Counted from the stretch's first letter, positions 26,874 through 50,636 are shown. The stretch: 64,000 bases of DNA from Candidatus Lernaella stagnicola (GCA_030765525.1 JAVCCK010000020.1:177286-241285); one strand, 5' to 3'. A program made the numbers and translations. Notes: generated from the sequence alone by a model not told the origin.

Positions 26874-28370
26874 TCAGGCTCGGCGTGCGTCTGGGTCCAT
26901 ATCGGCGGTAAGGCGCGGGTGGCGGGCGGCGGTGACTTCGTCCACCTTTTTGCACGTCGTGTTGTGCGGCGCGCTCTTAACGAGTTCCGGATGGCTTCCG
27001 GCTTCGGCGTGGATGTTCCGCATCGCCGTGATGAAACCGTCGAGCGATTCAGGCTCGAAGCTTTCGGTCGGCTCCACCATGATCGCGCCCTTGACCACCA
27101 GCGGGAAATAGACCGTCGGCGGATGAAAGCCGTAGTCGATCAAACGCTTGGCGACGTCCATCGTCGATACGTCGTTCGGCAGGCCCTTTTCGGCGAATAC
27201 GACTTCGTGCATGCACGGCGCCTCGTAGGCCACCGTGTACAAATCCTGCAGCCGCGCCCGTATGTAGTTGGCATTGAGCACCGCCATTTCGCTGGACGCC
27301 TTGAGCCCCGGCGCGCCGAGTTCGCGGATATAGGCATAGGCCCGCACGAGCACACCAACATTGCCCCACCAGGAACGAACACGCCCGATTGTCTGCGGGC
27401 GATCGTGATCCAGAGCGAAACCGCCATCGCGCTTAACGATGACCGGCGCAGGCAAAAACGGCGCCATATGCTTTTTAACCCCCACCGGCCCGGCGCCCGG
27501 ACCGCCGCCGCCGTGAGGTGTGCTGAAGGTTTTGTGCAAGTTGAAATGTAGCACGTCGATGCCGAAATCGCCCGGCCGCGTGATGCCCATGATGGCGTTC
27601 AGGTTTGCGCCGTCCATGTACACCAGGCCGCCTTGGTCGTGGACGATCTGGGCGATTTGCGCGATGTTCGATTCGAACAGTCCCAGCGTGTTGGGGTTGG
27701 TAATCATGATCGCCGCGACTTGGTCGTCCATGATTTCGGCGACCGCTTCGGGCGTCAGGATACCGGCCGCGCCCGATTTCAGTGGCACGACGTCGTAATT
27801 GCATATCGTGGCCGACGCCGGATTCGTCCCGTGCGCCGTGTCCGGAATGATGACCTTGGTTCGTTTTTGCCCCCGGGCTTCATGGTAGGCGCGGATGAGC
27901 ATCATGCCCGTCAATTCACCATGCGCGCCCGCTGCCGGCTGGCACGTGACCGCGTCCATGCCGGAAATCTCCGCCAGATGCTGTTCGAGGTTGAAGATCA
28001 ACTCCCAAAGGCCTTGGTGCTCGGCGGCCGGATGCGCGTCGGCGAAACCGGGCAGGCGGGCGAGGTCTTCGTTGATTTTCGGGTTGTACTTCATCGTGCA
28101 CGAGCCCAGCGGGTAGAGACCGCTGTCCAGACCGTAGTTGTACTGCGAGAGGCGCACGAAGTGACGAAACACTTCCACTTCGCTGACCTCCGGCCACGCG
28201 GCGGGCGTCAGGCGTTGCAGGTTCTCGGGTAGGGTCGCCGCTTCGGGTACATCGAGCGACGGCAGACTAAAGCCCTGACGGCCGGGCGTCGAGCGTTCGA
28301 AGAGCGTCGGCTCACACAGGGCCAGGCCCGTGCTGCCGGGCGTATCACAAGGACCGTACGATTTCGACAT
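26874..28370 (-). CDS. gcvPB: Glycine dehydrogenase (decarboxylating) subunit 2
   Basis: C-terminal half of P-protein, PLP fold. Start set at ATG 28370 (MSKSYGP...), which overlaps the gcvPA 3' end by 26 nt; no in-frame ATG/GTG/TTG lies closer to the conserved EPTLFERS N-terminus. Confidence 0.85.
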   Translation of the reverse strand: MSKSYGPCDTPGSTGLALCEPTLFERSTPGRQGFSLPSLDVPEAATLPENLQRLTPAAWPEVSEVEVFRHFVRLSQYNYGLDSGLYPLGSCTMKYNPKINEDLARLPGFADAHPAAEHQGLWELIFNLEQHLAEISGMDAVTCQPAAGAHGELTGMMLIRAYHEARGQKRTKVIIPDTAHGTNPASATICNYDVVPLKSGAAGILTPEAVAEIMDDQVAAIMITNPNTLGLFESNIAQIAQIVHDQGGLVYMDGANLNAIMGITRPGDFGIDVLHFNLHKTFSTPHGGGGPGAGPVGVKKHMAPFLPAPVIVKRDGGFALDHDRPQTIGRVRSWWGNVGVLVRAYAYIRELGAPGLKASSEMAVLNANYIRARLQDLYTVAYEAPCMHEVVFAEKGLPNDVSTMDVAKRLIDYGFHPPTVYFPLVVKGAIMVEPTESFEPESLDGFITAMRNIHAEAGSHPELVKSAPHNTTCKKVDEVTAARHPRLTADMDPDARRA

Positions 28371-29676
28371 AGCGGTCGATCTCCTCGCGGCTGTTGGCTT
28401 CGGTGACGCAGGTGAGGATGCCGTTTTCCAGCCCGGCGGCGAACCCGTCCAGGCCGATGCCGCCCAGAACGCCCGCTTCGCCCAGCGCGGCCAACACTTG
28501 ACCCGCGGGTTGTTTGGGCACCCAGACGAACTCATTGAAGGTCGGCGCGCTCAAAGGCACGTCGCCGATTTGCGCCAATTGGGCTTTCAGATATTCGGCC
28601 TTCGCGTGGTTTTGGTTCGCCACTTCCAGCAAGCCGGCGCGGCCTGTCAACGACATGTACACGGTGGCCGCCAGGGCCATCAGGCCGTGATTTGTGCAGA
28701 TGTTGCTGGTGGCTTTTTCGCGGCGGATGTGCTGCTCGCGAGTCGAGAGCGTCAGGCAGAAAGCGCGCTTGCCCTCGGCATCGACGGTCTGCCCGCAAAC
28801 CCGGCCCGGCATAGCCCGCACGTCACTTTTGTTGACCGCGAACAAGCCCAGGCCCGGCCCGCCGTAGGACATGGGAATTCCCAGCGACTGCCCCTCGCCG
28901 CAGGCGATGTCAGCGCCGGTTTGCCCGGGCGGCGCGATCAGCCCGAAGGCCAAAGGCTCGGTGAACGCGTGCACGAACTTCGCCTTCTTGCGGCCGTCGA
29001 GCAGCTTTTTGAACGCGGCGGCGTCTTCGATCGCGCCCAGGTAATTCGGCGACTGCAGTACGAGGCAGGCCACATCGTCGTCGATCAATGCCCGGGCGGC
29101 TTCCAAGTCGGTCGTGCCCGACGCGGCCAGGGGTGCGGCCACCAATTCCAGCGACGTCCATTTCGTATAGGTGCGCAGCGTCTCTAAGTATTGCGGGTGC
29201 AGCCCCGCCGAGACGACGACCTTCGTCTTGCGGCTTTGGCGTCCGGCCATGAGCACGGCTTCGGCCACGCCGGTCGCGCCGTCGTACATGCTGGCGTTGG
29301 AGATTTCCATGCCCAGCAGGCGCGCGATCATCGTCTGAAACTCGAACACCGCCTGCAACGTGCCTTGGCTGATTTCCGGCTGGTACGGCGTGTAGGCCGT
29401 GTAGAATTCGCTGCGTAGCAGCAAGTGGTTTATCGCCGCGGGTATCAAATGCCGATACGCGCCGCCGCCCGCGAAGCAGGGGCCGTGCGGACCTTTGTTG
29501 TTCAAGCCGCCCAGGTGATTGATCAGGGCGTTTTCGGGCAGCGGATCGGGCAGGCATAGTTCCCGGTCTAGGCGCAATTCCGGCGGAATCGAGCGAAACA
29601 GATCGGCCACGCTTTCTACGCCGATCGCCTCCAACAAGCGCTCGATATCGCCCGCGGTATGAGGGATGTAACGCAT
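28345..29676 (-). CDS. gcvPA: Glycine dehydrogenase (decarboxylating) subunit 1
   Basis: MRYIPHT...FYTAYTPYQPEISQG...SNASMYDGATG, N-terminal half of P-protein. Confidence 0.88.
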   Translation of the reverse strand: MRYIPHTAGDIERLLEAIGVESVADLFRSIPPELRLDRELCLPDPLPENALINHLGGLNNKGPHGPCFAGGGAYRHLIPAAINHLLLRSEFYTAYTPYQPEISQGTLQAVFEFQTMIARLLGMEISNASMYDGATGVAEAVLMAGRQSRKTKVVVSAGLHPQYLETLRTYTKWTSLELVAAPLAASGTTDLEAARALIDDDVACLVLQSPNYLGAIEDAAAFKKLLDGRKKAKFVHAFTEPLAFGLIAPPGQTGADIACGEGQSLGIPMSYGGPGLGLFAVNKSDVRAMPGRVCGQTVDAEGKRAFCLTLSTREQHIRREKATSNICTNHGLMALAATVYMSLTGRAGLLEVANQNHAKAEYLKAQLAQIGDVPLSAPTFNEFVWVPKQPAGQVLAALGEAGVLGGIGLDGFAAGLENGILTCVTEANSREEIDRYVEIVRSL

Positions 29677-29706: not shown

Positions 29707-30099
29707 TTACTTCTCTTCTTGTTCACCGCAGTATTTTTCGTAAGCGGCGGCATCCATCAGCGCATCTATTTCGCTCGGGTCGTCGAGCTTAATTTTGAGC
29801 AGCCAGCCCGCGCCGTAGGGCTCGGCATTAAGAATTTCCGGCATGTCGATTAAATCTTCATGGGACTCGACAACTTCCCCGCTCACCGGCGTGTAAATAT
29901 CGCTCGCGGCCTTGACTGATTCCACGACGCCGATCGTATCACCGGCGACGAATGGCTGACCAACTTCGGGCAATTCCAGGAAAACGATGTCACCTAAGGC
30001 ATGCTGGGCATAGTCGGTGACGCCCAGGGTCGCCACATCACCGGCCACTTTGACCCATTCGTGATCCGTGCTGTAACGCAGATCGCTGGGAATGTTCAT
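29707..30099 (-). CDS. gcvH: Glycine cleavage system H protein
   Basis: YSTDHEWV...ESVKAASDIYTPVSG (lipoyl-lysine motif); start at ATG 30099 with AAGGAG RBS. Confidence 0.9.
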   Translation of the reverse strand: MNIPSDLRYSTDHEWVKVAGDVATLGVTDYAQHALGDIVFLELPEVGQPFVAGDTIGVVESVKAASDIYTPVSGEVVESHEDLIDMPEILNAEPYGAGWLLKIKLDDPSEIDALMDAAAYEKYCGEQEEK

Positions 30100-30316
30100 T
30101 CGTTCACTCCTTTGGGAAAAGACATAAGCCGCTTGCCACCATTCTTGACTAGTTTTTCGCCGGGGAGACTCGCCGCCGAGCGTCGCAATGTGCCGCGCTA
30201 CGACACCCTGGGAGTAGCCCATGAAACGAAGGCGAGTCTAGGCCCGAGCCGTGCTTTTGTAAAGACCCGAAGAGGCCGAAACTGGCTAAAAAAAGGGCAT
30301 CGATGTGTCGGGATTC

Positions 30317-30646
30317 TTAATTCGTGGTGGTGTCTTTTGCCGGGGTTTTACTCTCGGAAGTCGTGGTCGTGCTCTTGGGCTTCTCGTCGGATTTCTCGGC
30401 CTTCGCAGTCGCGCCGTCGCCGTTCGTGCCGTTGCCGTTGGCCCCCGCGGCACCCGGCTTCTTGGCCTTGTAATCGGTTACGTACCAGCCCGAACCCTTC
30501 AGTAGAAAAGTGGATTGGCTGACCATTTTCCGCAGCGAACCGGCGGCGCCGCAATGCGGGCAGTCGGTCAAAGGCGGGTCGGTAATGCGCTGAATTTTCT
30601 CGACATGCGCATGGCAGACGGAACAGGTGTATTCGTAAATCGGCAT
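30317..30646 (-). CDS. FmdB-family zinc-ribbon protein with low-complexity C-terminal tail
   Basis: MPIYEYTCSVCHA...CPHCG two CxxC pairs; tail rich in G/N/T/K. Confidence 0.7.
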   Translation of the reverse strand: MPIYEYTCSVCHAHVEKIQRITDPPLTDCPHCGAAGSLRKMVSQSTFLLKGSGWYVTDYKAKKPGAAGANGNGTNGDGATAKAEKSDEKPKSTTTTSESKTPAKDTTTN

Positions 30647-30795
30647 CGCTTCCACACCTCGAAGAGGGCAAGCCCTCGAAAACCGCGGAAACTATAAGAA
30701 TTCCACAACTTTTGTCAAGCGTGTCCTCACCGCTTGCAAAGCGCGGGCAAAAAAACGATCATCCAAATCGAGTTTGCATGCCAGGGGAGGGACGC

Positions 30796-36632: not shown

Positions 36633-37418
36633 CTATTCGAGCGTTTCGTCGGTCAAGAAGCGTTCGGTAAAGTAGGCGTCGTCAATCTTCACATCCACTT
36701 CGTATTCTTCGAGCCTGAGTATGGTGGAGGCGCCCTTTAGCAGGTCGCTCATTTTCGTGTCTTTGGCGACCCAAGTGCCGTCGGAGCGCTTCTCCACGCC
36801 CGAGACTTCGAGCCGTTTCCAGAGCTTGCCCTTCTTATCGTAGAACTCGCCTTTGATGGGCAGGAAGTTGTCCTTGCGCACCCAGTAAACCAGTTTCGAG
36901 TAAATTTCGTCGTCGAGATTCTGCGGGACGGTCTCCACGACGTAGCAATCCTGGCCGTCGAGAACAGCATCGGCGAGGCGCTGATGGGCTCCTTGGTCCG
37001 GATCGTGGGTTTGCAGGTCGGCGTAGGCAAAGGTCGAGCCCATGAAATTGCCCGACTTATTCGATGACGTGATCCGCTTGACCTTCTTGAGCGCCGGCAG
37101 GAAGAGACGCTGATCGTCGTCGGCGTTTTTCTGCTCCACGATCAGGAACTTAGTGCCGCGCACATCCGGCGGGGCGAGGAAGGTCGTGACGGTGTGGCGC
37201 AAGCCGTTCTTTTCCTTGGTGCGCATTTTGATCTCGCGCACGCGCTCGCGGCCGTTTTTGTCGATGAGTATCATCTTGGCCGTCGTTTCGGCCGATTGGC
37301 TCTCGTTCTGTTTGGCCATCTTTTCCACGATCGCCTTGCCGTCGAGATCCGCCGCCGACACTACGGCCACCGCGATCACTAACGCCAATCCCACGCCGAG
37401 CAGTAAACGCAAACGCAT
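36633..37418 (-). CDS. Outer-membrane lipoprotein-sorting-protein-like (LolA-like) secreted protein
   Basis: Signal peptide from ATG 37418 (GGGAGGA RBS); composition and length fit the LolA-like family; assignment by resemblance only. Confidence 0.5.
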   Translation of the reverse strand: MRLRLLLGVGLALVIAVAVVSAADLDGKAIVEKMAKQNESQSAETTAKMILIDKNGRERVREIKMRTKEKNGLRHTVTTFLAPPDVRGTKFLIVEQKNADDDQRLFLPALKKVKRITSSNKSGNFMGSTFAYADLQTHDPDQGAHQRLADAVLDGQDCYVVETVPQNLDDEIYSKLVYWVRKDNFLPIKGEFYDKKGKLWKRLEVSGVEKRSDGTWVAKDTKMSDLLKGASTILRLEEYEVDVKIDDAYFTERFLTDETLE

Positions 37419-37539
37419 CAAGCTTCCTCCCGGTTTCATTATCGGCTGCATCTTGGCACGTCGGCCGCGTCGGCATCAACCCGCGTGCGCGAACCGGGCG
37501 GTCTTGCCTACCGGCTTCGGGCTGCTATCCTACTGCCCG

Positions 37540-38961: not shown

Positions 38962-40391
38962 CCCGTTTCGGCCGGCTGGTATTGGTCGCGCTCGTCTTGA
39001 CCGTGGTGGCGTGTCAAAAATCGCCGCCGGTGAAGCAGACCGGCCAGAACATTCTGCTGATCAGCATCGATTCGCTGCGCGCCGACCACGTAGGTGCCTA
39101 TGGCTACGGCCCGCCGACGACCCCGGCTCTTGACGCCTTTGCGCAAACCGGCGCTGTGTTTACGCGATCCTACGCCAACAGCCCGTGGACGCTGCCCAGC
39201 CATGTGTCGATGCTGACCGGCTTGTATCCGGACACCCACCTGGCGGTGAGAAACGACAGCTACCTAAGCGACCGCGTCACCACTGCGGCCGAAGCGTTGG
39301 CGTCGGCCGGCTATGACACGCACGCAGTGGTTTGCGCGCCGTTTTTACGCAGCACCTACAACCTGGCCCAGGGTTTCAAAACCTACGACGAGGAAATTGC
39401 GCATACCAAGCGGCCCAACATTCGGCGAATCAAAACCAGCGAAACCGTGACCGACAAAGCCGTCGCCTATTTGAAAAAACGAGCGGGCAGCCCGGAGCCG
39501 TTCTTTCTTTTCGTTCACTACTGGGACGTTCACTACGATTACAATCCGCCGAAGAAATACGTCGAGATATTCGATCCGGACTACCAAGGCGATCTCGACG
39601 GTTTGAACATCAGCAAGCGCGACGATCTGAAGCGCGGGATGAACGAGCGCGACCGCCGGCACCTGCTGGCGCTTTACGACGGCGAAATCCGCCTCACCGA
39701 CGACCACCTGCGCCGCTTGCTCGCCTACCTGGACGAGACCGGGATGGCCGCCAACACGGCGATCCTCATCACCGCCGATCACGGCGAGGAATTCTTGGAG
39801 CACGGGACGGTCGGCCATACCTTCACGTGTTTCGAGGAACTGATTCGTGTGCCGTTGATCGCGCGGATACCGGGCGTGACGCGGCCCGGGCAGCGTATCG
39901 ACACGCCGGTGGAGAACGTCGATCTTTTCCCCACAATGCTGGCGGTCGCCGGCGCGAGCGTGGAAAAGAAAACACAGGGCCACAACCTATTACCCGTGAT
40001 TCGTGACGGCATCGAACTCGCCCGCGACCGAATCTTCTGCGAAACGCGCATGGGTCGGCGGTGGGGGTGGCGCAAGCCCAACGGCGTCTGGCGCAGCCTG
40101 TTGTTCGACGACGGCAAGAAGGTCCACAGCTTCAAAGAAAGCGGCAAGAAGACAGAATTCAACTTGTACGATATCGACGCGGATCCCGGCGAGACCGACG
40201 ACCTAGCGGCAGCGGAAAACGGTGGCGAATTGCTTTTGCCGCGGCGTCGCGAGCTATCGCAGACGCATCGCGCACACACGGGGTTGGCCGAGCGGCGCAA
40301 TATCAAGCCCGATAGCTGGCGCTATCGCCGGAAAACGAAAAACAACGAAGACCTCGATGAACAGCTTCGGGGTCTTGGATACGTGAATTGA
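38958..40391 (+). CDS. Sulfatase-like hydrolase/transferase, tandem paralog
   Basis: ILLISIDSLRADHVG...SPWTLPSHVSMLTGLY...ADHGEEF; TTG start overlapping the upstream stop (TTGA); shares identical ~29-nt stretches with the upstream paralog. Confidence 0.7.
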   Translation: MTRFGRLVLVALVLTVVACQKSPPVKQTGQNILLISIDSLRADHVGAYGYGPPTTPALDAFAQTGAVFTRSYANSPWTLPSHVSMLTGLYPDTHLAVRNDSYLSDRVTTAAEALASAGYDTHAVVCAPFLRSTYNLAQGFKTYDEEIAHTKRPNIRRIKTSETVTDKAVAYLKKRAGSPEPFFLFVHYWDVHYDYNPPKKYVEIFDPDYQGDLDGLNISKRDDLKRGMNERDRRHLLALYDGEIRLTDDHLRRLLAYLDETGMAANTAILITADHGEEFLEHGTVGHTFTCFEELIRVPLIARIPGVTRPGQRIDTPVENVDLFPTMLAVAGASVEKKTQGHNLLPVIRDGIELARDRIFCETRMGRRWGWRKPNGVWRSLLFDDGKKVHSFKESGKKTEFNLYDIDADPGETDDLAAAENGGELLLPRRRELSQTHRAHTGLAERRNIKPDSWRYRRKTKNNEDLDEQLRGLGYVN

Positions 40392-40407: not shown

Positions 40408-41700
40408 ATGAAAATCTCGCCTCGTTTTCGGGTTCTCCTGCGACGCTATGTACTCTTCCCCTTATTGCCGGTGGCGGCATTGGTGATCGTGCTCACGCTG
40501 GTGCTCGGCGGGCTGGAAAAAGCGGACGTAATCGACACCGAGCGGCCCGACGATCTCGTCGCTTACAAACCCATCAACTTCGCGCCGGTGAAGGAAGAAA
40601 ACGGGCGGAAGCTCGTGCGCATCGACGAACCCACGATGGTGCCGGAAACCTTCAGCCTCAAGCCCGAACCGGGTGTCATGCGCATTGTGGTAACCGGCGG
40701 CTCGTTCGCCATGGGTTGGCCCTATGCGGTGCAGGGGAGGGAGCGGCGCGGCGGCGACTTGCCCAGTTGGCTGGAAGTGCTGTTGAAGGCCGGTTGGCCG
40801 CAGCGCAAATTCGAGGTGATCAACGCCGCGGCGGGCGCGCAGAATTCCTTCCGCGTCAAGCACGTCGTGCATGCGGCACTGCAATGGTCGCCGGACGTGC
40901 TGGTGGTCATGGTCGGAAACAACGAGGGCTACGTACCGCCAACCTCGTGGAACGAGATTCTGCACGAGTGGACGTTCTATCGGGCCATGAAAAAGGCGCT
41001 CTTGCCCGACGTCGCGCCGGAGAAACGACCCATGTATCCGGCCATCGGCGTCGGCATGAAAACCATCCGCGCGCAGTTTCAACGGAACATGCGCGACATC
41101 GTGACGATGAGTCGCGACGCCCAAGTACCTATCGTAGTCGCCACGGTGCCGATCAACCTTCGCTACTTTCCGACCGCCGAGGAATATTTGCCGCCCGACA
41201 AACCGTGGTACGCCGAAGGCCGCCGTCTGCAAGAAAGCGGTCGGTACGAGGAGGCGATCCGGAAATACATCGGCGGAGACCTCCGGGGCTACGGCCTGCG
41301 GTTATCCGGACAATGTTACGAGGCGCTCGAACAATGGAATCGCGCTCGCGCGGCCTATCGAGCGGGCGTGGAGTATCTGCCGTTTTCCCAAACCAGGCCG
41401 TCGTTCAACGAGTTCGTGCGTGAGTTGGCGGACGATCTCGACCTTCCGTTGGTCGATTTGGAGCGCGACTTCGAAAAGCAATCGCCTCATGGCATCACCG
41501 GCGACCGCTGGTTCATCGACGGTTGCCACTTGGATTGGCGAGGGTACTACTTCACCGCCCGCCGCGTGCTGGCGGCTCTCGAAGTCGCCGATTTGGTGAC
41601 CGGTCGGCGCACCGGCGAACTGCCCGAGGCCGAAGACTACGCCGTCTCGCACGATTTGATCGACTACATGGAGACGACCCAGCCGGCGCGCCTGCCATAA
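40408..41700 (+). CDS. SGNH/GDSL-like hydrolase, membrane-anchored
   Basis: N-terminal TM; RIVVTGGSFAMG (block I-like), VVMVGNNE; approximate. Confidence 0.45.
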   Translation: MKISPRFRVLLRRYVLFPLLPVAALVIVLTLVLGGLEKADVIDTERPDDLVAYKPINFAPVKEENGRKLVRIDEPTMVPETFSLKPEPGVMRIVVTGGSFAMGWPYAVQGRERRGGDLPSWLEVLLKAGWPQRKFEVINAAAGAQNSFRVKHVVHAALQWSPDVLVVMVGNNEGYVPPTSWNEILHEWTFYRAMKKALLPDVAPEKRPMYPAIGVGMKTIRAQFQRNMRDIVTMSRDAQVPIVVATVPINLRYFPTAEEYLPPDKPWYAEGRRLQESGRYEEAIRKYIGGDLRGYGLRLSGQCYEALEQWNRARAAYRAGVEYLPFSQTRPSFNEFVRELADDLDLPLVDLERDFEKQSPHGITGDRWFIDGCHLDWRGYYFTARRVLAALEVADLVTGRRTGELPEAEDYAVSHDLIDYMETTQPARLP

Positions 41701-41746: not shown

Positions 41747-44700
41747 TTATTTCTTTTTACGCAGGAAGCGGCCGAGGATCGTGATTTCGACCGGCATCGT
41801 GAGCCGCTGGCCGATTTTGACTTCGTCGGCTGCGATCGGCGGCCGGCCCTTCGGCGCCGGAATCACCTGCAAGGTCTTGCTTTTGGCATAACGCGCCTGC
41901 ACGAATGCCTGGCCGATCAACTTGCCTTCGCCGTCGGTGGCGCAACTGGTCACGTAGCCGATGCACGCGCCTTTGTCGTTGACGATCGGGTCGTCCGTTT
42001 TCAGCGGCCGGGTTCCCTTGGCGGAGACGCCGAAACGCACGACGGCGATTCCGCGCTTTTCCTTTTTCGCTAGGTAGGCCTTTTTGCCCACGAAAAACGG
42101 CTTGTGCAGTTTGACGAAACCGCCGAATCCGGCTTCGTTGGGCACGAGGTTGTGCGGGCCGGCCAGTTCGTGTCCGTACAGCGGCAAACCGGCTTCCATG
42201 CGCAGGCTGTCCCGCGCGCCGAGGCCGATCGGCATCACGCCGTGCTCCTTTCCGGCTTCCATGATCGCTTCCCAAAGCTGCGGCGCCTTGTCGGGATGCA
42301 CGAAAATCTCGAAGCAAGTCGGCTCGCCGGTATAACCCGTGCCGGAGATGATCGCGTCGAGGCCGTCCAACGTGGCGTACATGGTGCAGTTGTGCCCCAA
42401 GGCTTTCAGCGCCGGTTTGTCCGCTTCGGCCGCGAGTGCCAGCAAGATGTCGCGCGAACGCGGGCCTTGCAGCGCCAGGTCGACACGACGCTCGTCGCCC
42501 CATTGCGGGTCTTTCAGATTGCGCAGCACGCAAGGCTCGGGGAAGCAGCGTTGCGGCACCTGCGGATCGAGCAGCACCCGCCCTTCGTTGACCGCAACCA
42601 GCCACGCCCAATCCTTGTCTTCGTTGGCGGCGTTGACGACCAGCAGAATGCGGTCGGCCTGAACGTGGTAGACGAGCAGATCATCGAGCAAATCGCCGTC
42701 GTGATCGAACAGGTGCGAGTACTGCGCCTCGCCGACCTCCAAACCGCCGGCGTGATTGGCGCAAACCAGATCGACGAACTCCATCGCCCGCGGGCCGCTG
42801 GCCTCGAACACGCCCATGTGGCTGACGTCGAACAGCCCCGCCGCTTGCCGCACGGCGTTGTGTTCCTCGATGGTCGAGGTGTAACGCACCGGCATTTCGT
42901 ATCCGCCGAAGGGCACCATCACGCCGCCGAGTTTCTGGTGAATCTCAAACAGCGTGGTGCGCTTGTCTTCGCCTTCCGGCGCATTCCAGGAGAAGCGCGG
43001 CAAGTCCGGCTGGGGCAGGCGGTCGGCCAGCGCGCTTTGGCCCACAAAGAAAGGCCGCGCGACGTCCACATTCAACTCGGCGGCGTCTTTCCCGGCGAGG
43101 CTTTTATCGGTTTTCGGCAACAGGCTCAGCCAATCCTGAGCGAAGGTGCAATCCAACGGCATTTCGTCGATCACCACCGCGCCGGTGACTTTCGCCGAAG
43201 CATCCTGCGGATCGATCATCGTGAAGCCGTCGGCAAGACCGCGCAACCAGGCCAACAGGGGATCGGCGTTGTCCGGGTTTACTTTCACCACGAAACCGTT
43301 GCGGCGCGGATCATCGCTGAGCGGCAGCCGGGCCAGCGCGATTTCGTCCAGCACGTTGCCTTGATCGTCGAGCGCCAGGCTCGTCACCTTTTCGCCGTCG
43401 GCCAGGTGCGAAGGATCGGTGACCAGCGCCTCGCGCAGGAATTCGTCGGCTTCGGCGCCCGTCAACTTGACGATCACGGCCTCTTCGGAGTGGTCCAAAT
43501 ACGGATGGTGCGGATAGCCCGAAAGCGCCGGCGCATCCACACGCCAGGTGCGGGTTAACGCGTCAACTTCCTCGGACACTTCGCGCAGCACCTTCAAGTC
43601 GATCTTGCCGCGCGGCAGCACGCGGGTCATGCCGTCGTAATGCACGGGATGAATCGCGGTGATCACCCGGTGGATCAAGCGCGCGATGTGCTTGACGTCT
43701 TCCGCGTCGGCCCCGCGCTGCGTCACCCACGGCGTGCCGAGGCGCAGGCCCGTGGCCAGCGGCGTGGCGGTGTCGCCGGGGATGGTGTTTTTGTTGAGGA
43801 TGATGCCCGCCAGTTCCAGAATGTGCGCGGCCGGCTCGCCGTAAAGCAGCGGCGTTCCCCGGGGGGTGAGCGGTTTGAGGTCGATCAGCAGCTTGTGCGT
43901 ATCGGTGCCGCCGTAGGCGAGGCGAACGCCCAGCCGCTGGAATTCTTCGGCCATCACTTTCGCGTGGCCGGCGATGCGGTGCATGAGCTGCCGGAACGAG
44001 TCGGTCTGCGCCAGCTTGAACGCCACGGCCAGCGCGGCAATCGTGTTCATATGCGGGCCGCCTTGCTCGCCCGGGAAGACGCTGTTGTGGATCTTCGCCG
44101 CCAGCTTGCCGCTGCTGGTGAGGATCACCGCACCGCGCGGACCCATCAAGGTCTTGTGGGTCGTGAACGTCACTACATGGGCATGGTCGATCGGGTTCGG
44201 GTAATCCCCGGCCACGGTCAGACCCGCCGGGTGGGCGATGTCGGCCATCAGGTATGCGCCCACTTCGTCGGCAATGGCGCGGAACTTGGCGAAATCCGGC
44301 GCCCAGGGGTAGGACGTGTACCCGGCGATGATCATCTTCGGCCGATGTTCCTTGGCCAGCCTCATCACTTCGTCGTAATCGATCAGTTCGGTTTGCGGGT
44401 CCACGCCGTAGGGCACGATGTGGTAGTGCTTGCCGGTCATGTGGAAGGGGCTGCCGTGCGAGAGGTGCCCGCCCGCCATGAGGTCCAGGGCCATGACGGT
44501 GCCGCCGCGGGGCACCAGGGCTTCGTACACGGCGATGTTGGCCGGGGCGCCCGAGAGGGGCTGCACGTTGGCGTGGATTTTCGACGCCGGTGTCTTTTCG
44601 GTGGCGAAGCACTCGGCGGCGCGGGTGCGGCAGATCGATTCCACGAGGTTCACGTACGCGTTGCCCTTGTAAAAGCGGCGGTCGGCGTAGCGGCGGTAGC

Positions 44701-44962
44701 GCACGAGCCGGGTGGCGATGTCGGACAGGTTTTCCATCGGCATCAGCGTGTTTTCGCGCGCCGGGTAGCCTTCCGCGTAGAGGTTCGTGAAACACGTGTC
44801 GAGCATCCGGCGCACCGGCCAGGCGCAAATACTTTCCGAGGGAATCAGCACGATGTGCCGCGCCTGCCGCTCTTCCTCCCAGTGGAGCAGTTCGTTCATC
44901 AGGGAGTCGGCGTTCTGGATGTTTTCGTCGAAAAGGAAATCGATGATCGCTTCGTCGGACAT
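41747..44962 (-). CDS. Fusion protein: serine hydroxymethyltransferase (GlyA-like) N-terminal domain + glycine cleavage T-protein (aminomethyltransferase) C-terminal domain
   Basis: Single 1071-codon ORF. N-terminal AEGYP...ANVQPLSGAPAN...GGHLSHG...VVTFTTHKTLMGPRG (SHMT PLP-lysine motif). C-terminal FGGYEMPVRY...GLFDVSHMG...TGYTGE...GLGARDSLRMEAGLPLYG (GcvT). GAGGT RBS before ATG 44962. Confidence 0.8.
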   Translation of the reverse strand: MSDEAIIDFLFDENIQNADSLMNELLHWEEERQARHIVLIPSESICAWPVRRMLDTCFTNLYAEGYPARENTLMPMENLSDIATRLVRYRRYADRRFYKGNAYVNLVESICRTRAAECFATEKTPASKIHANVQPLSGAPANIAVYEALVPRGGTVMALDLMAGGHLSHGSPFHMTGKHYHIVPYGVDPQTELIDYDEVMRLAKEHRPKMIIAGYTSYPWAPDFAKFRAIADEVGAYLMADIAHPAGLTVAGDYPNPIDHAHVVTFTTHKTLMGPRGAVILTSSGKLAAKIHNSVFPGEQGGPHMNTIAALAVAFKLAQTDSFRQLMHRIAGHAKVMAEEFQRLGVRLAYGGTDTHKLLIDLKPLTPRGTPLLYGEPAAHILELAGIILNKNTIPGDTATPLATGLRLGTPWVTQRGADAEDVKHIARLIHRVITAIHPVHYDGMTRVLPRGKIDLKVLREVSEEVDALTRTWRVDAPALSGYPHHPYLDHSEEAVIVKLTGAEADEFLREALVTDPSHLADGEKVTSLALDDQGNVLDEIALARLPLSDDPRRNGFVVKVNPDNADPLLAWLRGLADGFTMIDPQDASAKVTGAVVIDEMPLDCTFAQDWLSLLPKTDKSLAGKDAAELNVDVARPFFVGQSALADRLPQPDLPRFSWNAPEGEDKRTTLFEIHQKLGGVMVPFGGYEMPVRYTSTIEEHNAVRQAAGLFDVSHMGVFEASGPRAMEFVDLVCANHAGGLEVGEAQYSHLFDHDGDLLDDLLVYHVQADRILLVVNAANEDKDWAWLVAVNEGRVLLDPQVPQRCFPEPCVLRNLKDPQWGDERRVDLALQGPRSRDILLALAAEADKPALKALGHNCTMYATLDGLDAIISGTGYTGEPTCFEIFVHPDKAPQLWEAIMEAGKEHGVMPIGLGARDSLRMEAGLPLYGHELAGPHNLVPNEAGFGGFVKLHKPFFVGKKAYLAKKEKRGIAVVRFGVSAKGTRPLKTDDPIVNDKGACIGYVTSCATDGEGKLIGQAFVQARYAKSKTLQVIPAPKGRPPIAADEVKIGQRLTMPVEITILGRFLRKKK

Positions 44963-45302
44963 GTCGTTACCTCAAGCGAGTTTCGAAACAGTTGAAGTCA
45001 CCGTTTCTTAACACCGCGCTAAATGAAAGTAAACGCCGCCCGCGCGTCGCGACCGGCAAACGCTGGTGAAAAGCGAATTCGCACCCCGTAATCGCCGACC
45101 GCGTCCCCTTCTACGGCCGCCGCGGCATTCAGGTCCCGGCCCTAGTGCCGCAAAACAACTGAAAAGGCGGGACGGGCGCCGAGACCGGTTATTTGTAGGG
45201 GAAAAGAGTTAACACCGAGGACTAATGCTTTTAGCAGCCTAAGACCATCTTTCCACATCGCAAACCGGTTCCAGAAAGGTCGCTGCTACTATGCGCTACT
45301 CA

Positions 45303-46421
45303 CTACGTGACAGATTTGGCGGAAGACCACTCATAATAAACTTTTAGATTATTCATAAAGCTCCAATCAAGCCAGCCTTCTTTCTGCATTCGACCGACAA
45401 CGATCCCCGGCGCGATACCAATTCCCGTTGCGAAACTGCGCACATCGTCTTTCGATCGGAATTGTCTTGCGGCCAACCCGTGTAGACGGTTTGCATCGGC
45501 AGGTTTTATCAGGATATTACTTGCGTAAACGTCTGCTTGTCTTTCAGATTCGTTATCCAGGCCACCCAAGCCCTCGATAAATAATAGTTTTTTGCCGTGT
45601 AGCAGCAGGTGGGCGGCTTCGTGGAAAAAGGTGAACCAAACGTGATCGTTCGAGTTGTAGCGCAAACTGAGCAAGAGCATGGCTTTTGCAGGCGCCAACC
45701 ATCGTGTTGCCCCGCTTGCCGGGCATCCCGGGGGCGTTTCCAAGAACACAACCGCCACGCCGCATGCTGCGCATACCTCGGTCATTCGAACAATGAAAAC
45801 GTCGGGATCTGACTCGTTTGTCAGGGCGCGTAGTTCACGCAGGGCATCCCTAAACGCTTGTTTATTGAACGGTTCGCAGGGGATATTGTTTGCCCTGCGT
45901 TCACCTTCCCGAAGCCAAGCCGCCACTGCGCCCACGTTCTTTTGAAATTTATCAGACGCCCGAAATGCGGCAACGGGTGTTTGATATTGTTCACGCCAAG
46001 CGTCTACGGACGCGACACAAAAAAATCTCAGAGAATCCAGCACCTGTTCGCCTTTTTCGCGGATATTGCGGATCAGTCCCAACTTTCGCATCCACGGCAG
46101 CGGCAATTCCTTTAGCCACCCGGCGTCTTTTCTTGCAGCCTCAATCGCATCTTTTCGCGCCAGCCCAGCTTGGTATTGAGCGTCGCGAACCAACCAAAAA
46201 TTGGGAGTTGATCCCAGAACCCTCGAAAGACGTTCGGCAATCTGGGTCGAAATCGGCACGCGGCCTTTCACTAGATCGTTCACAAAAGGGGCGGTAACGT
46301 CCATTCGCTTTGCAAGATCAGTTTGCCTCCACCCTAGCTCTTCGAGCAACTCATCAATCGTATCTCCGGGTGGAGAAATCCAATCGGGATTGAATTGTTC
46401 ATGGTTAGTCATGGTAGTCAC
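45303..46421 (-). CDS. higA: HigA-like antitoxin: XRE-type HTH N-terminus fused to ImmA/IrrE-like HExxH metallopeptidase domain
   Basis: N-terminus PPGDTIDELLEELGWRQTDLAKRM...STPNFWL matches HigA HTH; C-terminal FFHEAAHLLLH motif; region has lower GC. Confidence 0.65.
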   Translation of the reverse strand: MTTMTNHEQFNPDWISPPGDTIDELLEELGWRQTDLAKRMDVTAPFVNDLVKGRVPISTQIAERLSRVLGSTPNFWLVRDAQYQAGLARKDAIEAARKDAGWLKELPLPWMRKLGLIRNIREKGEQVLDSLRFFCVASVDAWREQYQTPVAAFRASDKFQKNVGAVAAWLREGERRANNIPCEPFNKQAFRDALRELRALTNESDPDVFIVRMTEVCAACGVAVVFLETPPGCPASGATRWLAPAKAMLLLSLRYNSNDHVWFTFFHEAAHLLLHGKKLLFIEGLGGLDNESERQADVYASNILIKPADANRLHGLAARQFRSKDDVRSFATGIGIAPGIVVGRMQKEGWLDWSFMNNLKVYYEWSSAKSVT

Positions 46422-46734
46422 CTATAAAAATGATACAAACTGCCGTGACGCGATTCCAGTCGATGCCGCCGTCGTCTTTTTCTGGGATCGGTTCATGAGC
46501 CGGTTCGAATACGAGCCGATGCCCTCCGTGAAGATTCATCGAAAACTGGCCCACTCTATCGCCTTTTAAGGCGTGTGGCCGACCGGCGATCAATTCTGTA
46601 ACATTATGGGCTGCTCTAATATCTGCCAAACGGGCGCGCAACTTCTTGAAACCGGGACCGCCGAGCTTCTTTTTGGCGCCTCTCTTATCAGCGCAGATTT
46701 TCTCCACGTCCCGTGTGCTGTAAAGAATATCCAT
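46405..46734 (-). CDS. higB: HigB-like RelE/ParE-superfamily toxin
   Basis: ALKGDRVGQFSMNL...RLVF...IGDYHD matches the HigB signature (LKGDR.G..S....R..F....DYH); toxin-first order; 17-nt overlap with the antitoxin gene. Confidence 0.65.
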   Translation of the reverse strand: MDILYSTRDVEKICADKRGAKKKLGGPGFKKLRARLADIRAAHNVTELIAGRPHALKGDRVGQFSMNLHGGHRLVFEPAHEPIPEKDDGGIDWNRVTAVCIIFIGDYHD

Positions 46735-47260
46735 CTAGCCCTCATTTGTCAAGAACTATTCATCTAAATGGCTAATCATTTTTATGTTTCGTCGTCCAGA
46801 GTTTCGACCGAAGCGTCCATCTCCAACCAGAACTCCCGGGCGGATTACTCCCACTCGGCCCAAAGCGCACATAAAAAACTTCGTCGAAAGAGACTTTAAT
46901 TCTGGATTCCCGGCTGCGCGGAAACGACGATGATAGGCAAAACATACGTGGTGTCTCGTCGAACGATAAGGATTATGCTGTCCTTGCCTTATCGACGCAA
47001 GTCAGCGTCATGGCCGATTGAAAAAATACGTATACGCCTTTCATTTCGAGGGCGTGACGACCGCAACGACCGTAGCCGAAAATCTTCGCGTCGCTCGAGC
47101 ATTTCATATAGAGTAAAAAAACGATCGAGCGCGCCACCACATTCCTCGAACGTGTCCGATATTGGTCGCAAGACAAAGGCCGAATGTGGTAGAACCGCTC
47201 AAGAAGGCGGCCCGCTTGGCCGAAAGCTTCATTGAATTCACTTTTTAGAAGAGGGAAGAG

Positions 47261-47578
47261 ATGGGTATGTGGAAGTACACCTTGCTGCTTTGTGTTTCGC
47301 TCGTTTTGGCCCTGAGCATGTTCGCCGCGTGCGGCGATGACGATGACGACGACGACGGCGGCGGTGGCGGCTATACGTGCGCCGATGCGTGCAGCGTAAT
47401 TTATGACGACTGCGGCGCGGTTCTGGCCGTTGACGGCTACACGTTGTCCGAAGCGGAATGTGTCGAGGGCTGCAACGACGAGGGCGGCATCGGCAGTTGT
47501 GAAACGGCTTGTCTGGACACCTATGCCGAAGACGAAGACTGCGACGCGTTCGCCGATTGCGCGTACAACTGCTTCTAG
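47261..47578 (+). CDS. Small acidic Cys-rich secreted lipoprotein
   Basis: Signal peptide with lipobox (MFAACG), DDDDDDDGGGGG linker, then ~80 aa with 10 Cys and high Asp/Glu. Confidence 0.55.
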   Translation: MGMWKYTLLLCVSLVLALSMFAACGDDDDDDDGGGGGYTCADACSVIYDDCGAVLAVDGYTLSEAECVEGCNDEGGIGSCETACLDTYAEDEDCDAFADCAYNCF

Positions 47579-47657: not shown

Positions 47658-47685
47658 TTGACTGCCGCCCTTCTTGCCATACAAT
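47658..47685 (+). promoter_or_regulatory. Candidate sigma70-type promoter upstream of panB
   Basis: TTGACT-N16-TACAAT at 47658-47685; about 135 nt upstream of the panB start. Confidence 0.3.
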
Positions 47686-47819: not shown

Positions 47820-48662
47820 ATGTCACGCAAGAAATTCGATTTGTTTACACTGAAGAAATGCTATCAAGACGGCGAGAAAATCACCATGATCACCGCCTAC
47901 GACTTCCCGACCGCGAAACTCGTGGACGAAGGGGGCGTCGAAACCGTGCTCGTGGGCGATAGCGCCGCCAACGTTGTACTGGGCTACGACAGCACGGTGC
48001 CGGTGACGATGGACGAACTGCTCGTCCTGGTCAAAGCCGTGCGGCGCGGCCTTAAGCACGCCATGCTCATCGGCGATATGCCTTTTGGCAGCTACAACGA
48101 ATCCGACGAACAGGCCATTCGCAACGGCACGCGCTTTCTCAAAGAGGGCGGCTGCGACGCGGTCAAGCTCGAAGGCGGCGGCGTGATGGTCCCGCGCATC
48201 CGCAAAATGGTGCAGGCCGGGGTGCCCGTCGTCGGACACCTGGGTTTGACGCCGCAAACGGCGGGCATGATCGGCGGCTACCGCGTCCAGGGACGCACGG
48301 CGGAGCAGGCGGAAATCATCCTCAACGACGCCAAGGCCATCGCCGAAGCGGGCGCGTGGATGCTCGTGCTGGAACTCGTGCCCGACCGGCTCGCCAAGCT
48401 GATTACCGAGTCCATCGACATCCCGACCATCGGTATCGGCGCGGGCCCCGATTGCAGCGGGCAGGTGCTGGTGCTGCATGATATGCTTGGTATCAACGAG
48501 GGCTTCACGCCCAAATTCCTGAAGCACTACGCACAGCTTGCGCCGACGATTCGCGACGCGGTCTCGACCTACGTGCAAGAGGTCAAAAAAGGCGAGTTTC
48601 CCACGGCGGAGCACTCGTTTACGATCAAAAACGAAGAGTTGCAGAAACTATACGGCGGCTGA
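47820..48662 (+). CDS. panB: 3-methyl-2-oxobutanoate hydroxymethyltransferase
   Basis: ITMITAYDFPTAKL...VLVGDSAANVVLGYDST...IGDMPFGSY, full-length PanB pattern; GGAG RBS. Confidence 0.9.
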   Translation: MSRKKFDLFTLKKCYQDGEKITMITAYDFPTAKLVDEGGVETVLVGDSAANVVLGYDSTVPVTMDELLVLVKAVRRGLKHAMLIGDMPFGSYNESDEQAIRNGTRFLKEGGCDAVKLEGGGVMVPRIRKMVQAGVPVVGHLGLTPQTAGMIGGYRVQGRTAEQAEIILNDAKAIAEAGAWMLVLELVPDRLAKLITESIDIPTIGIGAGPDCSGQVLVLHDMLGINEGFTPKFLKHYAQLAPTIRDAVSTYVQEVKKGEFPTAEHSFTIKNEELQKLYGG

Positions 48663-48680
48663 GCCGCGGGGGAGGCGACG

Positions 48681-49370
48681 GTGGCGGTCAATTTCGTAAC
48701 GGACGTGGACGACCTGGTGGCAATCAAGCGCGTGCTGGTGAGCGTGTCGGACAAATCCGGCCTCGGTATGCTGGTGTCCCGGATGATGGAAACCTGTCCG
48801 GATATCCATTTCTACTCCACCGGCGGCACGTACGCGCGGCTGGCCGAGATTCTCGGCGACCTGGCCGCGACGCACTTGACTCAGGTGTCGGACTATACCG
48901 GTCAGCCCGAAACCCAGGGCGGTTTGGTCAAGACGCTGGATTTCAAAATCTACCTCGGCTTACTTACCGAAACCTACAACGAATACCACCGCGCTGACCG
49001 CGAGCGGACCAGCGCCGTGCCGATCGACATGGTGATCGTCAACCTCTACCCCTTCAGCCGGACCGTGGCTCGCGACGACGCGACGATCGAGATGGCGCGG
49101 GCCAACATCGATATCGGCGGCCCCTGCATGGTGCGCGCCTCCGCCAAGAATTTCCTGCGCGTCACTTCGGTCGTGAACCCCGGCGACTATGGAGTTTTGT
49201 TGGAGCAGTTGCGCACGCAGGAAGGCAAGCTCAATCTGCAACAACGTTATGACTACGCCCGCCGGGCCTTTGCCCACACCGCGGCCTACGATACGGCGAT
49301 TTCCGAATACCTGGCGGCCCACGACCCGTCGGTTGTCCCGGCCGTCTACACGCTCCACGAGCAAGACTGA
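48681..49370 (+). CDS. purH: IMP cyclohydrolase domain protein (PurH N-terminal domain as a separate ORF)
   Basis: RVLVSVSDKSGL...YSTGGTYARL...QVSDYTGQPE...MVIVNLYPF...IDIGGPCMVRASAKN matches the PurH IMPCH domain; ends with TGA 12 nt before the next ORF. Confidence 0.8.
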   Translation: MAVNFVTDVDDLVAIKRVLVSVSDKSGLGMLVSRMMETCPDIHFYSTGGTYARLAEILGDLAATHLTQVSDYTGQPETQGGLVKTLDFKIYLGLLTETYNEYHRADRERTSAVPIDMVIVNLYPFSRTVARDDATIEMARANIDIGGPCMVRASAKNFLRVTSVVNPGDYGVLLEQLRTQEGKLNLQQRYDYARRAFAHTAAYDTAISEYLAAHDPSVVPAVYTLHEQD

Positions 49371-49382
49371 GAGGAACGCGAC

Positions 49383-50636
49383 ATGGCCGACTTGAAGAAG
49401 ATGTATCGCACCATCGTCGGCGATCACTTCGCGCCGCGCATGGAAATTTCGTTTATCGATGCCGGCGGCGAGCGCACGACACTCAGTTATGAAAAGGTGA
49501 CGTGGACCATCGATGAGGAAGAAAAGGGCCTGCGTTACGGCGAGAATCCGGGACAGGAAGCCGCGCTCTACAAGCTGGTGGGCGGTAATCTTGCCATCGG
49601 CGAGGTCGAATTGATTCGGCCCGGCGCGGGCTTGGTGACCGGGGCGGACATGGTCAAATTCGGTAAGCACCCCGGCAAGATCAACCTCACCGATGCCGAC
49701 AATGCGCTGAATATCTTGCGCTTCCTCACCGAAAAGCCCGCCGCGGCGATCATGAAGCACAACAATCCGTCGGGCGTGGCTCAGGCGGAGTCCCTTGTCG
49801 AGGCGTACCTCAAAGCCGATCTGGCCGACCATGTTGCCGCCTTCGGCGGTTGCATCGCACTCAACCGCCCCGTCGACATCGACACTGCCACCGCGATTTC
49901 CGAGCGCTACGCCGAAGTCGTGATCGCGCCGGAATTCGAAGAAGGCGCCGTCGATATTCTGGCCGGGCGCAAGAACCTGCGCATCATGAAAATTGCCAAC
50001 ATCGAACGCCTGCAGAGTTACGCCGCCGAGCGCTTCCTCGACCTAAAATCCCTCGTCGACGGCGGCATCATCGCCCAGCTTTCCTACCTGCCGGTGCTTG
50101 GCCGGGACGCGCTGCAAATCGCCGAGACGACCTACAAGGGCGAGACGCATCGTGTCGAGCGTGAGCCGACCGAGGCCGAAATCAAAGACATGCTTTTCGG
50201 CTGGATCGTCGAGGCGGGCGTGACGTCCAACTCGGTGATTTACGTCAAGGACGGCGTCACCGTCGGCATCGGCACCGGCGAGCAAGACCGTGTCGGCGTG
50301 GCGCGTATCGCCCGCGACAAGGCTTACCGCAAGCTGAGCGAACGGTACGCTTTTGAACGCCACGAGCAGTCGCTTGATCTGCTGGCGGAAAAGGATCCCG
50401 ACGCCGCGGCGGCCATCGAGGCGGAAGTCACGCAGCAGCGCGGCGGCCTGCCGGGCAGCGTCATGGTTTCCGACGCCTTCTTCCCCTTCCGCGACGGCAT
50501 CGACGTCGGCCTGGGGGAGGGCGTGAAGGCGGTCATTCAGCCGGGCGGCTCGATCAAGGACTACCAATCGATTCAAGCCTGCAACGAAAACGGCGCAACG
50601 ATGGTCTTTACCGGCCAGCGCTCGTTCAGGCACTAG
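49383..50636 (+). CDS. purH: AICAR transformylase domain protein (PurH C-terminal domain as a separate ORF)
   Basis: LRYGENPGQEAALY...KHNNPSGVA...AFGGCIALN...VIAPEF...DAFFPFRDGIDV...VIQPGGSIKD...MVFTGQRSFRH matches the PurH AICARFT domain. Confidence 0.8.
   Translation: MADLKKMYRTIVGDHFAPRMEISFIDAGGERTTLSYEKVTWTIDEEEKGLRYGENPGQEAALYKLVGGNLAIGEVELIRPGAGLVTGADMVKFGKHPGKINLTDADNALNILRFLTEKPAAAIMKHNNPSGVAQAESLVEAYLKADLADHVAAFGGCIALNRPVDIDTATAISERYAEVVIAPEFEEGAVDILAGRKNLRIMKIANIERLQSYAAERFLDLKSLVDGGIIAQLSYLPVLGRDALQIAETTYKGETHRVEREPTEAEIKDMLFGWIVEAGVTSNSVIYVKDGVTVGIGTGEQDRVGVARIARDKAYRKLSERYAFERHEQSLDLLAEKDPDAAAAIEAEVTQQRGGLPGSVMVSDAFFPFRDGIDVGLGEGVKAVIQPGGSIKDYQSIQACNENGATMVFTGQRSFRH

Follow-up and report, generated by a model that had tools for sequence, protein, structure and literature searches.

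The 64,000-nucleotide stretch of Candidatus Lernaella stagnicola analyzed here (GCA_030765525.1 JAVCCK010000020.1:177286-241285, hereafter the window) contains a gene at 41747..44962 on its minus strand that raises the question whether serine hydroxymethyltransferase (SHMT) and GcvT, which is the T-protein in the glycine cleavage system (GCS), can be combined in a single polypeptide, and what the two might do together. Folate one-carbon (C1) metabolism is entered and left mainly through two points, SHMT and the GCS. These also make up the core of the photorespiratory conversion of glycine to serine and of the reductive glycine pathway in its natural and synthetic forms. An earlier note, made from the nucleotide sequence, had described the gene as a fusion of both enzymes in one uninterrupted frame of 1071 codons, with an extra, degenerate GcvT-type domain in the middle. 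We have followed up this description with profile searches for both domains, a search for full-length homologues and a structure prediction that includes the inter-domain region.

One reading frame for SHMT and T-protein

The listing of open reading frames (ORFs) contains one frame at 41747..44962, with an ATG start, 1071 codons plus stop and zero internal stops, and the GC content stays at 0.62-0.66 throughout the gene. All motifs quoted in the earlier note are found in its translation: GGHLSHG (aa 164-170) and VVTFTTHKTLMGPRG (aa 263-277), the middle stretch KLTGAEADEFLREAL...LLAWL (aa 498-573), and, in the C-terminal part, FGGYEMPVRY (685-694), GLFDVSHMG (709-717), TGYTGE (875-880) and GLGARDSLRMEAGLPLYG (913-930). 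The protein consists of an SHMT module, a T-protein relic that we denote GcvT', and a GcvT module, an arrangement evidenced by the domain matches, the homologues, an independent assembly and a model of the whole chain by AlphaFold2 (AF2).

The fusion protein (P0001) is annotated on a 301-kb NCBI contig of the metagenome-assembled genome (MAG) of Candidatus Lernaella stagnicola, and an identical protein is encoded on a contig of an independent ENA assembly (ERZ27315835 k141_238769). At least 120 full-length homologues of 1057-1250 aa were found on independent contigs, with 40-73% identity and with both PF00464 and PF01571 in each; query coverage, where given, is 98-100%. In an alignment of the best 120 database matches, on which the family conservation counts in this work are based, conservation spans the whole length of the fusion, the inter-enzyme region included, and only aa ~601-630 form a variable linker. 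An exhaustive search of 1.84 billion representatives with the segment aa 437-668 as the query returned 144 clusters at 50% identity, most of them proteins of 1040-1270 aa with the match at ~430-690. According to source names and a genome scan, fusion members among the matches listed come from Lernaellota, Myxococcota, Bipolaricaulota, Planctomycetota, 'Deltaproteobacteria' and Chloroflexota, the latter with Anaerolineales, Aggregatilineales, Ardenticatenaceae, Chloroflexia, Flexilinea and Roseilinea. Note that the genome scan used generic GcvT motifs and that most of its at least 80 loci are canonical gcvT, so that this list of taxa is a lower bound. Database names of fusion members vary between 'GcvT', 'serine hydroxymethyltransferase', 'glycine hydroxymethyltransferase' and 'hypothetical protein', and cover one half of the protein only.

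That a frameshift or mis-assembly has merged neighboring glyA and gcvT genes, as the earlier note had feared, can be dismissed for all practical purposes: beyond prior plausibility, it has in its favor the frameshifted tail of one relative (P0163), an example of this type of error in the data, and it is ruled out by the same ORF in an independent assembly, by 120 full-length homologues of 40-73% identity from many samples, by ~190 conserved residues with a fold of their own between the two enzymes, and by the uniform composition. We found no paper describing an SHMT-GcvT fusion, an internal GcvT duplication with graded decay or T-less gcv operons, which agrees with the statement in the note that its author was aware of no characterized fusion of this kind, and NCBIfam has no model specific for it. 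As judged from the sequences, the fusion is a real, widespread and uncharacterized architecture, whose two component enzymes belong to a single pathway and are well understood.

The modules of the fusion protein

The SHMT module (aa 1-436; 43655..44962, with all parts of the gene on the minus strand) is matched by Pfam PF00464 with 393 bits against a cut-off of 27 (E 1.2e-117), over aa 92-430 and a further stretch at the N-terminus, and by the NCBIfam SHMT model NF000586 with 416.7 bits against 335. It shares 39-42% identity with solved bacterial SHMTs at template modeling (TM) scores of 0.87-0.88, and a Foldseek search of the PDB returned an SHMT-type match of fold-type I (E 2e-36, target TM 0.88). 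Solved structures cover no more than this SHMT third of the fusion (query TM 0.35). Residues were mapped by pairwise alignment with E. coli GlyA (Ec), taken from NC_000913. Ec Y55, E57, Y65, S97, G98, H126 and H129 correspond to Y62, E64, Y98, S137, G138, H166 and H169 of the fusion, Ec D200, H203, T226, H228, K229 and R235 to D241, H244, T267, H269, K270 and R276, and Ec P258, G262, G263, N347 and R363 to P297, G301, G302, N392 and R407. They are invariant or nearly so among the 120 homologues, with R407 in 119 and N392 in 117, and the set for pyridoxal 5'-phosphate (PLP), K270, D241, H244, H166, S137/G138 and G301/G302, is complete in 120/120. It comprises the PLP-stacking histidine H166 and the Schiff-base lysine K270 in the motif TTHK (codon at 44153..44155), which aligns with Bs K226 and Ec K229. 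Presumably, Ec R363 binds the substrate carboxylate, while we take E57, Y65 and N347 to be tied to the reaction that depends on tetrahydrofolate (THF).

Like canonical GlyA from E. coli (1DFO) and B. stearothermophilus (1KKJ), the module is a fold-type I PLP enzyme that has kept the mapped PLP, carboxylate and THF residues. Unlike these enzymes, it is covalently joined to about 600 residues of GcvT-fold sequence and carries an insertion, a C-terminal extension and invariant substitutions of its own. The family-specific insertion of ~25 aa (aa 68-94; 44681..44761) lies between 'YAEGYP' and 'RRFYKG', where phmmer splits the SHMT match, and its mean top-residue fraction is 0.80-0.87. The substitutions, present in 119-120 of the 120 sequences, are Ec H96 to L136, Y64 to F97, S175 to T216, L265 to H304 and H267 to N306, and two of the five flank the GGP loop that bears the equivalents of Ec G262/G263. 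The extension (aa 437-475; 43538..43654) is modeled by AF2 as a beta-hairpin (strands 437-443 and 448-454) followed by a helix (456-470), with I437, P439, F440, Y442, G444 and L449-K453 near-invariant.

For the whole fusion, AF2 yielded a mean predicted local distance difference test score (pLDDT) of 83.8 and a predicted TM score (pTM) of 0.78. Very low confidence is found only in the stretches 62-67, 93-106 and 297-303, which hold Y62/E64, Y98 and G301/G302. We take the equivalents of these residues to complete the site of the partner subunit in solved SHMT dimers, and since it is the loops carrying them that score low in a monomer model, the prediction is consistent with an SHMT-type dimer.

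The catalytic GcvT module (aa 665-1071; 41750..42970), which ends in a putative C-terminal barrel, matches Pfam PF01571 (GCV_T) at aa 672-938 with 267 bits against 25.6 (E 1.8e-79). It also passes the gcvT equivalog TIGR00528 (273.4 vs 235.85) and NF001567 (PRK00389; 302.6 vs 300), albeit by small margins in both NCBIfam models, and it aligns end-to-end with the solved T-proteins 1yx2 (E 8e-61), 1woo and 3a8i. In the mature numbering of the E. coli T-protein, Y84, D97, Y101 and N113 correspond to Y748, D761, Y765 and N777 of the fusion, and E191, E195, R223 and R227 to E880, E885, R917 and R921, all of them in 120/120 homologues. We take D761 to be the equivalent of D101 in human T-protein, and Ec N113, E191, R223 and R227 to be folate or lipoyl-arm residues, with R223 as the lipoyl-arm contact. 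The human D101 has been called catalytically essential (PMC9551070).

With the equivalog passed, the whole-length alignment and the invariant catalytic aspartate and folate/lipoyl-arm residues, the module resembles canonical GcvT from E. coli (3A8I), T. maritima (1WOO) and B. subtilis (1YX2). It differs from them in that its N-terminus is tethered, that a degenerate copy of itself stands in front, and that it contains a family-specific insertion of ~30 aa (aa ~795-828, '...PQRCFPEPCVLRNLKDPQWGDERRV'; 42479..42580). The insertion has no counterpart in the T-proteins of these three species and is conserved within the fusion family. By these profile and residue matches, each catalytic module qualifies for its family, the caveats being a weak match of the C-terminal barrel and the missing adjacency to gcvH and gcvP, to which we return below.

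The earlier note had read the region between both enzymes as a degenerate GcvT-type domain, and this reading proved correct. A profile built from the C-terminal GcvT halves only matches the middle regions of 120/120 homologues, and in the Lernaella fusion it aligns with its positions 55-152 to aa ~498-601 (E 3e-11), with a KPFFVG motif in addition. The relic (aa 476-664; 42971..43537) is a truncated, non-catalytic copy with a core at ~498-601, the linker at ~601-630 and the motif 'RPFFVGQ' at 636-642. In homologues of ~1220 aa, the additional length resides in the middle region, where 51 aa follow position 495 and another ~90 aa lie at 609-630. The middle region of these homologues reads as a full additional copy of GcvT, recognizable by FDLGHMG, LIDDV, TGYT, GLxxRxxLRSEAGL and KPYFVGQ. 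The 120 sequences fall into 23 long, 7 intermediate and 90 short forms; the profile runs over positions 3-300 in the long class (E~1e-70) and yields two partial pieces in the intermediate one. Residues that never vary in the catalytic copy are lost even from the complete middle copy: in 22 of the 23 long forms, D, R and L stand at the positions of H715, Y748 and Y765, respectively, and that of E880 is variable. To judge by this series, the middle copy looks like a pseudo-enzyme that was later trimmed stepwise. Both GcvT copies carry the family-specific insertion pattern, in the GcvT' version 'DPxD...KVxGPxVV', from which we conclude that the duplication arose within the fusion family.

The relic is conserved with a mean top-residue fraction of 0.57-0.78, and W572, D587, K591 and G594 are invariant. 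In a MAG of Ca. Roseilinea (L030; JANWYN010000064.1, 3989-7185) the protein is split exactly within the variable linker: an ORF of 629 aa joins a family-type SHMT (QPLSG, GGPHLN) to the relic and stops behind 'GPVVV', and after a gap of 110 nt a family-type GcvT of 398 aa follows, with the family insertion. The SHMT plus relic architecture is also seen in P0161 (639 aa) and P0243 (667 aa). P0142 ends after a complete middle copy. That the relic stays with SHMT and not with the catalytic T-module in the split forms speaks for a possible role as adaptor and against a mere spacer.

A gcv operon without gcvT and the role of the fusion

A gcvH-gcvPA-gcvPB cluster stands 12 kb from the fusion gene, likewise on the minus strand. 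The gene for H-protein, gcvH, has a maximal ORF at 29707..30222 with a real start probably near 30099 (PF01597, E 2e-43), and its region 29737-30096 shows 54.5% identity to E. coli GcvH. The genes for the P-protein subunits are gcvPA (28345..29676; PF02347, E 4.5e-124; NCBI name GcvPA) and gcvPB (maximal ORF 26874..28535, real start probably ~28370), the latter identified by PF21478 (GcvP2_C), PF02347 and tblastn with E. coli GcvP; in relatives, gcvPB encodes 492-499 aa and overlaps gcvPA by ~25 nt. Directly upstream of gcvH, in the slot that gcvT takes in canonical operons, lies a Zn_ribbon_8 gene (30317..30655), identified by Pfam and by the gene order in relatives. The gcv cluster contains no gcvT, the 64-kb window holds no other GcvT match, and Pfam scans of its other long ORFs revealed no second SHMT.

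The order Zn_ribbon_8 - gcvH - gcvPA - gcvPB without gcvT recurs in three relatives (L085, L086 and L087, with GcvPA identities of 78, 66 and 59%), while an outgroup with a 55% identical GcvPA, a Desulfuromonas carbonis cluster, has folD-DUF5981-metF-gcvT-gcvH-gcvPA-gcvPB. One assembly combines, with nearly equal read coverage, a T-less operon (P0273; NODE_9, 12.8x) with a 57% identical fusion (P0010; NODE_10, 14.1x). As the operon lacks gcvT in the window and in three relatives but not in the outgroup, it is most likely the fusion that provides the T-protein. Among the fetched loci with adequate flanks, gcvH or gcvP was seen nearby in 0/18 fusion loci and in 30/41 canonical gcvT loci, the latter taken from the genome scan as a control (Fisher p = 5e-8). 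The usual, though not defining, signature of a T-protein gene, a position adjoining gcvH or gcvP, is thus absent from these fusion loci.

We consider it probable that the protein is a bifunctional SHMT/T-protein, the C-terminal module acting as the T-protein of the organism and both sites sharing THF and 5,10-methylene-THF (CH2-THF). SHMT interconverts serine plus THF with glycine plus CH2-THF, and T-protein interconverts aminomethyl-lipoyl-H-protein plus THF with reduced H-protein, NH3 and CH2-THF. The earlier note had suggested that glycine could be channeled between the fused sites, a proposal that does not hold, as the substrate of T-protein is the aminomethyl-lipoyl arm of the H-protein and never free glycine. 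Since T-protein does not bind free glycine, the shared intermediate of the two sites would be the folate, THF/5,10-CH2-THF.

In such an enzyme, the GcvT module would act with the H- and P-proteins of the operon 12 kb away. If both sites run in opposite senses, the folate would be a shuttle, and the net reaction would interconvert aminomethyl-H plus glycine with reduced H, NH3 and serine; together with the P- and L-proteins, 2 glycine would yield serine, CO2, NH3 and NADH, or the reverse, in which serine, NH3 and reduced H would give glycine and aminomethyl-H. If they run in the same sense, serine and glycine would be oxidized to CH2-THF, or the enzyme would serve the reductive glycine pathway, and the fusion would provide stoichiometry and proximity, but no relay. 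It would in either case set a 1:1 stoichiometry and unite both folate sites in a single particle, which is probably a dimer of SHMT type with two T-modules and the GcvT' relic as a structural adaptor between them. The host MAG is reported to encode carbon monoxide dehydrogenase/acetyl-CoA synthase (CODH/ACS), a methyl branch without Fhs, and three [FeFe] hydrogenases (PMC9324843), and with this equipment either physiological direction is plausible.

A more speculative proposal, which we put forward with considerable doubt, is a self-contained one-carbon relay, in which a bound (poly)glutamylated folate swings or tunnels between the T-protein and SHMT sites, CH2-THF is never released, and GcvT' provides a dock, a tunnel or a second site for H-protein or the folate tail. 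If true, the protein would be the first 'glycine-to-serine synthase' from nature in which GCS and SHMT are covalently joined, and when run from serine to aminomethyl-H, it could load H-protein for reductive glycine synthesis or for the biosynthesis of the dithiomethylamine (DTMA) of [FeFe]-hydrogenase.

A sober alternative is that both modules are active and canonical but their fusion is kinetically meaningless, a neutral or co-expression 'Rosetta-stone' fusion with the relic as a spacer and no hand-over. Fusions of pathway neighbors are common, the natural split forms mean that covalent linkage is dispensable, and classical work on pea mitochondria is said to have found no channeling of CH2-THF between glycine decarboxylase (GDC) and SHMT. 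A spacer, however, would hardly be under the clear purifying selection seen in the relic and its four invariant residues, nor would it be retained on SHMT in the split forms, and at least six phyla have preserved the architecture. We regard this explanation as possible, although we do not favor it.

It is improbable that the GcvT module has no partnership with H-protein and is a folate-holding 'C1-capture' domain, as in dimethylglycine oxidase (DMGO), dimethylglycine dehydrogenase (DMGDH), sarcosine oxidase or trimethylamine N-oxide (TMAO) demethylase, which would convert formaldehyde or an iminium from a neighboring SHMT-like site to CH2-THF. Known fusions of a GcvT-fold with another catalytic domain, DMGO, DMGDH and SoxA, presumably operate in this way; in DMGO (1PJ5), DMGDH (4PAB), the sarcosine oxidase alpha subunit (2GAG) and TMAO demethylase (9Q59), as in the fusion, a folate-binding GcvT-fold module is joined to a catalytic module that supplies the C1 unit. 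These proteins appear as structural matches to the relic and as sequence matches to the C-terminal module, the fusion gene is unlinked to gcvH and gcvP, and invariant non-canonical residues lie close to the active site of the SHMT module. The modules of those fusions, however, take the C1 fragment directly from the partner domain without H-protein, whereas in the fusion they would be partnered by a PLP enzyme with folate binding of its own, which retains the THF-related residues E64, Y98 and N392. While the gcvT equivalog is passed, the fusion stays far below the cut-offs of the other GcvT-fold models (soxA 124.7 vs 1164, TmaoDeMth 148.3 vs 1100, DmdA 62.8 vs 410), and a Pfam scan of the fusion protein found no FAD domain. 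In addition, the equivalent of Ec R223, the presumed lipoyl-arm contact, is invariant, and the T-less gcvH-gcvP operons of the same lineage would be left with no T-protein.

There is an equally small chance that the N-terminal module is a diverged SHMT-like PLP enzyme of another pathway, such as a transaldolase, an alpha-methylserine or threonine aldolase or another enzyme that transfers a hydroxymethyl group. The invariant L136, F97, T216, H304 and N306, the conserved insertion and the C-terminal extension would fit such a change, SHMT-like domains have been fused elsewhere with new functions, and fluorothreonine transaldolase is a weak match here. Its model TIGR04506 is reached with only 62.4 against 650, though, while NF000586 is passed; the long SHMT subfamily NF010094 (PRK13580) remains below its cut-off as well (299 vs 735). 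Moreover, conservation extends to every residue that was mapped from E. coli GlyA for PLP, carboxylate and THF chemistry, and the module shares 41-42% identity with bona fide bacterial SHMTs.

Several points weigh against a bifunctional SHMT/T-protein. The invariant non-canonical residues and the 25-aa insertion of the SHMT module stand beside active-site residues. The Pfam match to the C-terminal barrel (PF08669, GCV_T_C) is weak, reaching 16.6 bits where 25.9 are required; the alignment with solved T-proteins, however, extends to about aa 1027, and residues 972-1063 are predicted by AF2 to form a beta-rich domain (pLDDT ~80-90). In E. coli, the N-terminus of T-protein is important for the interaction with H-protein, and in the fusion it is tethered. 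The absence of gcvT and glyA covers 64 kb of the genome, a stand-alone copy may exist elsewhere, and every fusion member seen comes from MAGs or metagenomes. Regulatory support is lacking, since neither a riboswitch nor a conserved neighbor was found: at gathering thresholds, Rfam detected no glycine or THF riboswitch in the window and only tRNAs and SRP RNA in 11 fusion loci, and all-vs-all clustering of the flanking ORFs of 25 fusion loci revealed nothing in common beyond lineage synteny, the best families reaching 7-8 loci. Finally, the reported lack of channeling in pea bears on any direct hand-over.

Genomic neighborhood and significance of the fusion

The fusion gene looks monocistronic, with a gap of 340 nt on its 5' side and a convergent gene for a GDSL-lipase/TPR protein (40408-41700) on its 3' side, preceded by tandem sulfatase genes (37153-38961 and 38958-40391). 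Both sulfatases are syntenic with the fusion in one relative (L090), and they fit the description of the Ca. Lernaella genome as sulfatase-rich (PMC9324843). A second GDSL protein is encoded at 24820-26022, and a probably secreted protein of 1172 aa with an unusual architecture of Malectin, CotH kinase and Lamin-tail domains at 17550-21068 (+).

On the plus strand, the folate-dependent enzymes panB and a split purH occupy 47820..50636, as evidenced by Pfam and by synteny in three relatives (L089, L090 and L091), where the fusion is directly divergent from this block. The two parts of purH (48681-49370 and 49383-50636) are 12 nt apart and contain MGS/IMP-cyclohydrolase plus AICARFT positions 1-67, then 67-311. 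The matching split in the same relatives (228/229 aa plus 416 aa) identifies it as a real gene fission and not a sequencing error. In L089 (ERZ24794679 NODE_10, 1-2745), genes for CdhD, an AcsE-like Pterin_bind methyltransferase, DUF3786, a CooC-like ATPase and CooT stand beside the fusion/panB/purH block, and in L090 a GCHY-1 (FolE2) gene adjoins it; folE2 was not found in the corresponding place of the window. These genes hint at a folate- and C1-themed neighborhood in this lineage, while in distant relatives the gene contexts of the fusion are unrelated.

Between the fusion and panB, the Lernaella window contains a low-GC patch (~45000-47250, 0.49-0.54 vs ~0.62). It includes, on the minus strand, a gene for a protein of 372 aa with HTH_3 and Peptidase_M78 (ImmA/IrrE-like) domains (45303-46421) and, overlapping it by 17 nt, an ORF of 109 aa without a Pfam match (46405-46734). 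The pair resembles a toxin-antitoxin or anti-repressor module, and as it is missing from the syntenic intergenic region of the relatives, it is probably an insertion. Just upstream of panB, an ORF of 105 aa (47261-47578, +) without a Pfam match has a lipoprotein-like signal (…LSMFAACG), after which come seven Asp and five Gly in a row and a tail rich in Cys and Asp; a sigma-70-like promoter match adjoins it at 47658-47685.

To place the fusion among known couples of both enzymes, the GCS has been described as 'closely cooperating' with SHMT (bioRxiv 10.1101/2020.03.16.993188). The mitochondrial glycine decarboxylase and SHMT of plants and animals carry out the same pair of reactions, coupled via CH2-THF in the photorespiratory conversion of 2 glycine to serine, but as separate proteins and not as one polypeptide. 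A direct hand-over of CH2-THF is debated for the plant mitochondrial system, and we know of no stable complex of T-protein and SHMT there. In the defined maturation of [FeFe]-hydrogenase, SHMT, T-protein and H-protein load aminomethyl-lipoyl-H from serine and NH4+ (PMC11736057). SHMT and T-protein act in series in that system, from serine via CH2-THF to aminomethyl-H, as they might in the fusion, but there they are separate E. coli proteins mixed in vitro.

To our knowledge, a covalent natural model for the hand-over of CH2-THF has been absent so far, and the fusion family provides one. It offers internal controls in its long, intermediate and short forms of the relic and in the natural split forms, and a genomic correlate in the T-less gcv operons. 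Its hosts are abundant, uncultured anaerobes (Anaerolineae, Bipolaricaulota, Lernaellota and Myxococcota), and because the fusion is annotated by one half only, metabolic reconstructions will wrongly score SHMT or T-protein as missing in these phyla. The fusion is noteworthy for the question of channeling and for the engineering of the reductive glycine pathway; it would change the paradigm only if a hand-over or a new physiological role were demonstrated. If the folate hand-over is true, the design could be copied for engineered assimilation of formate and CO2.

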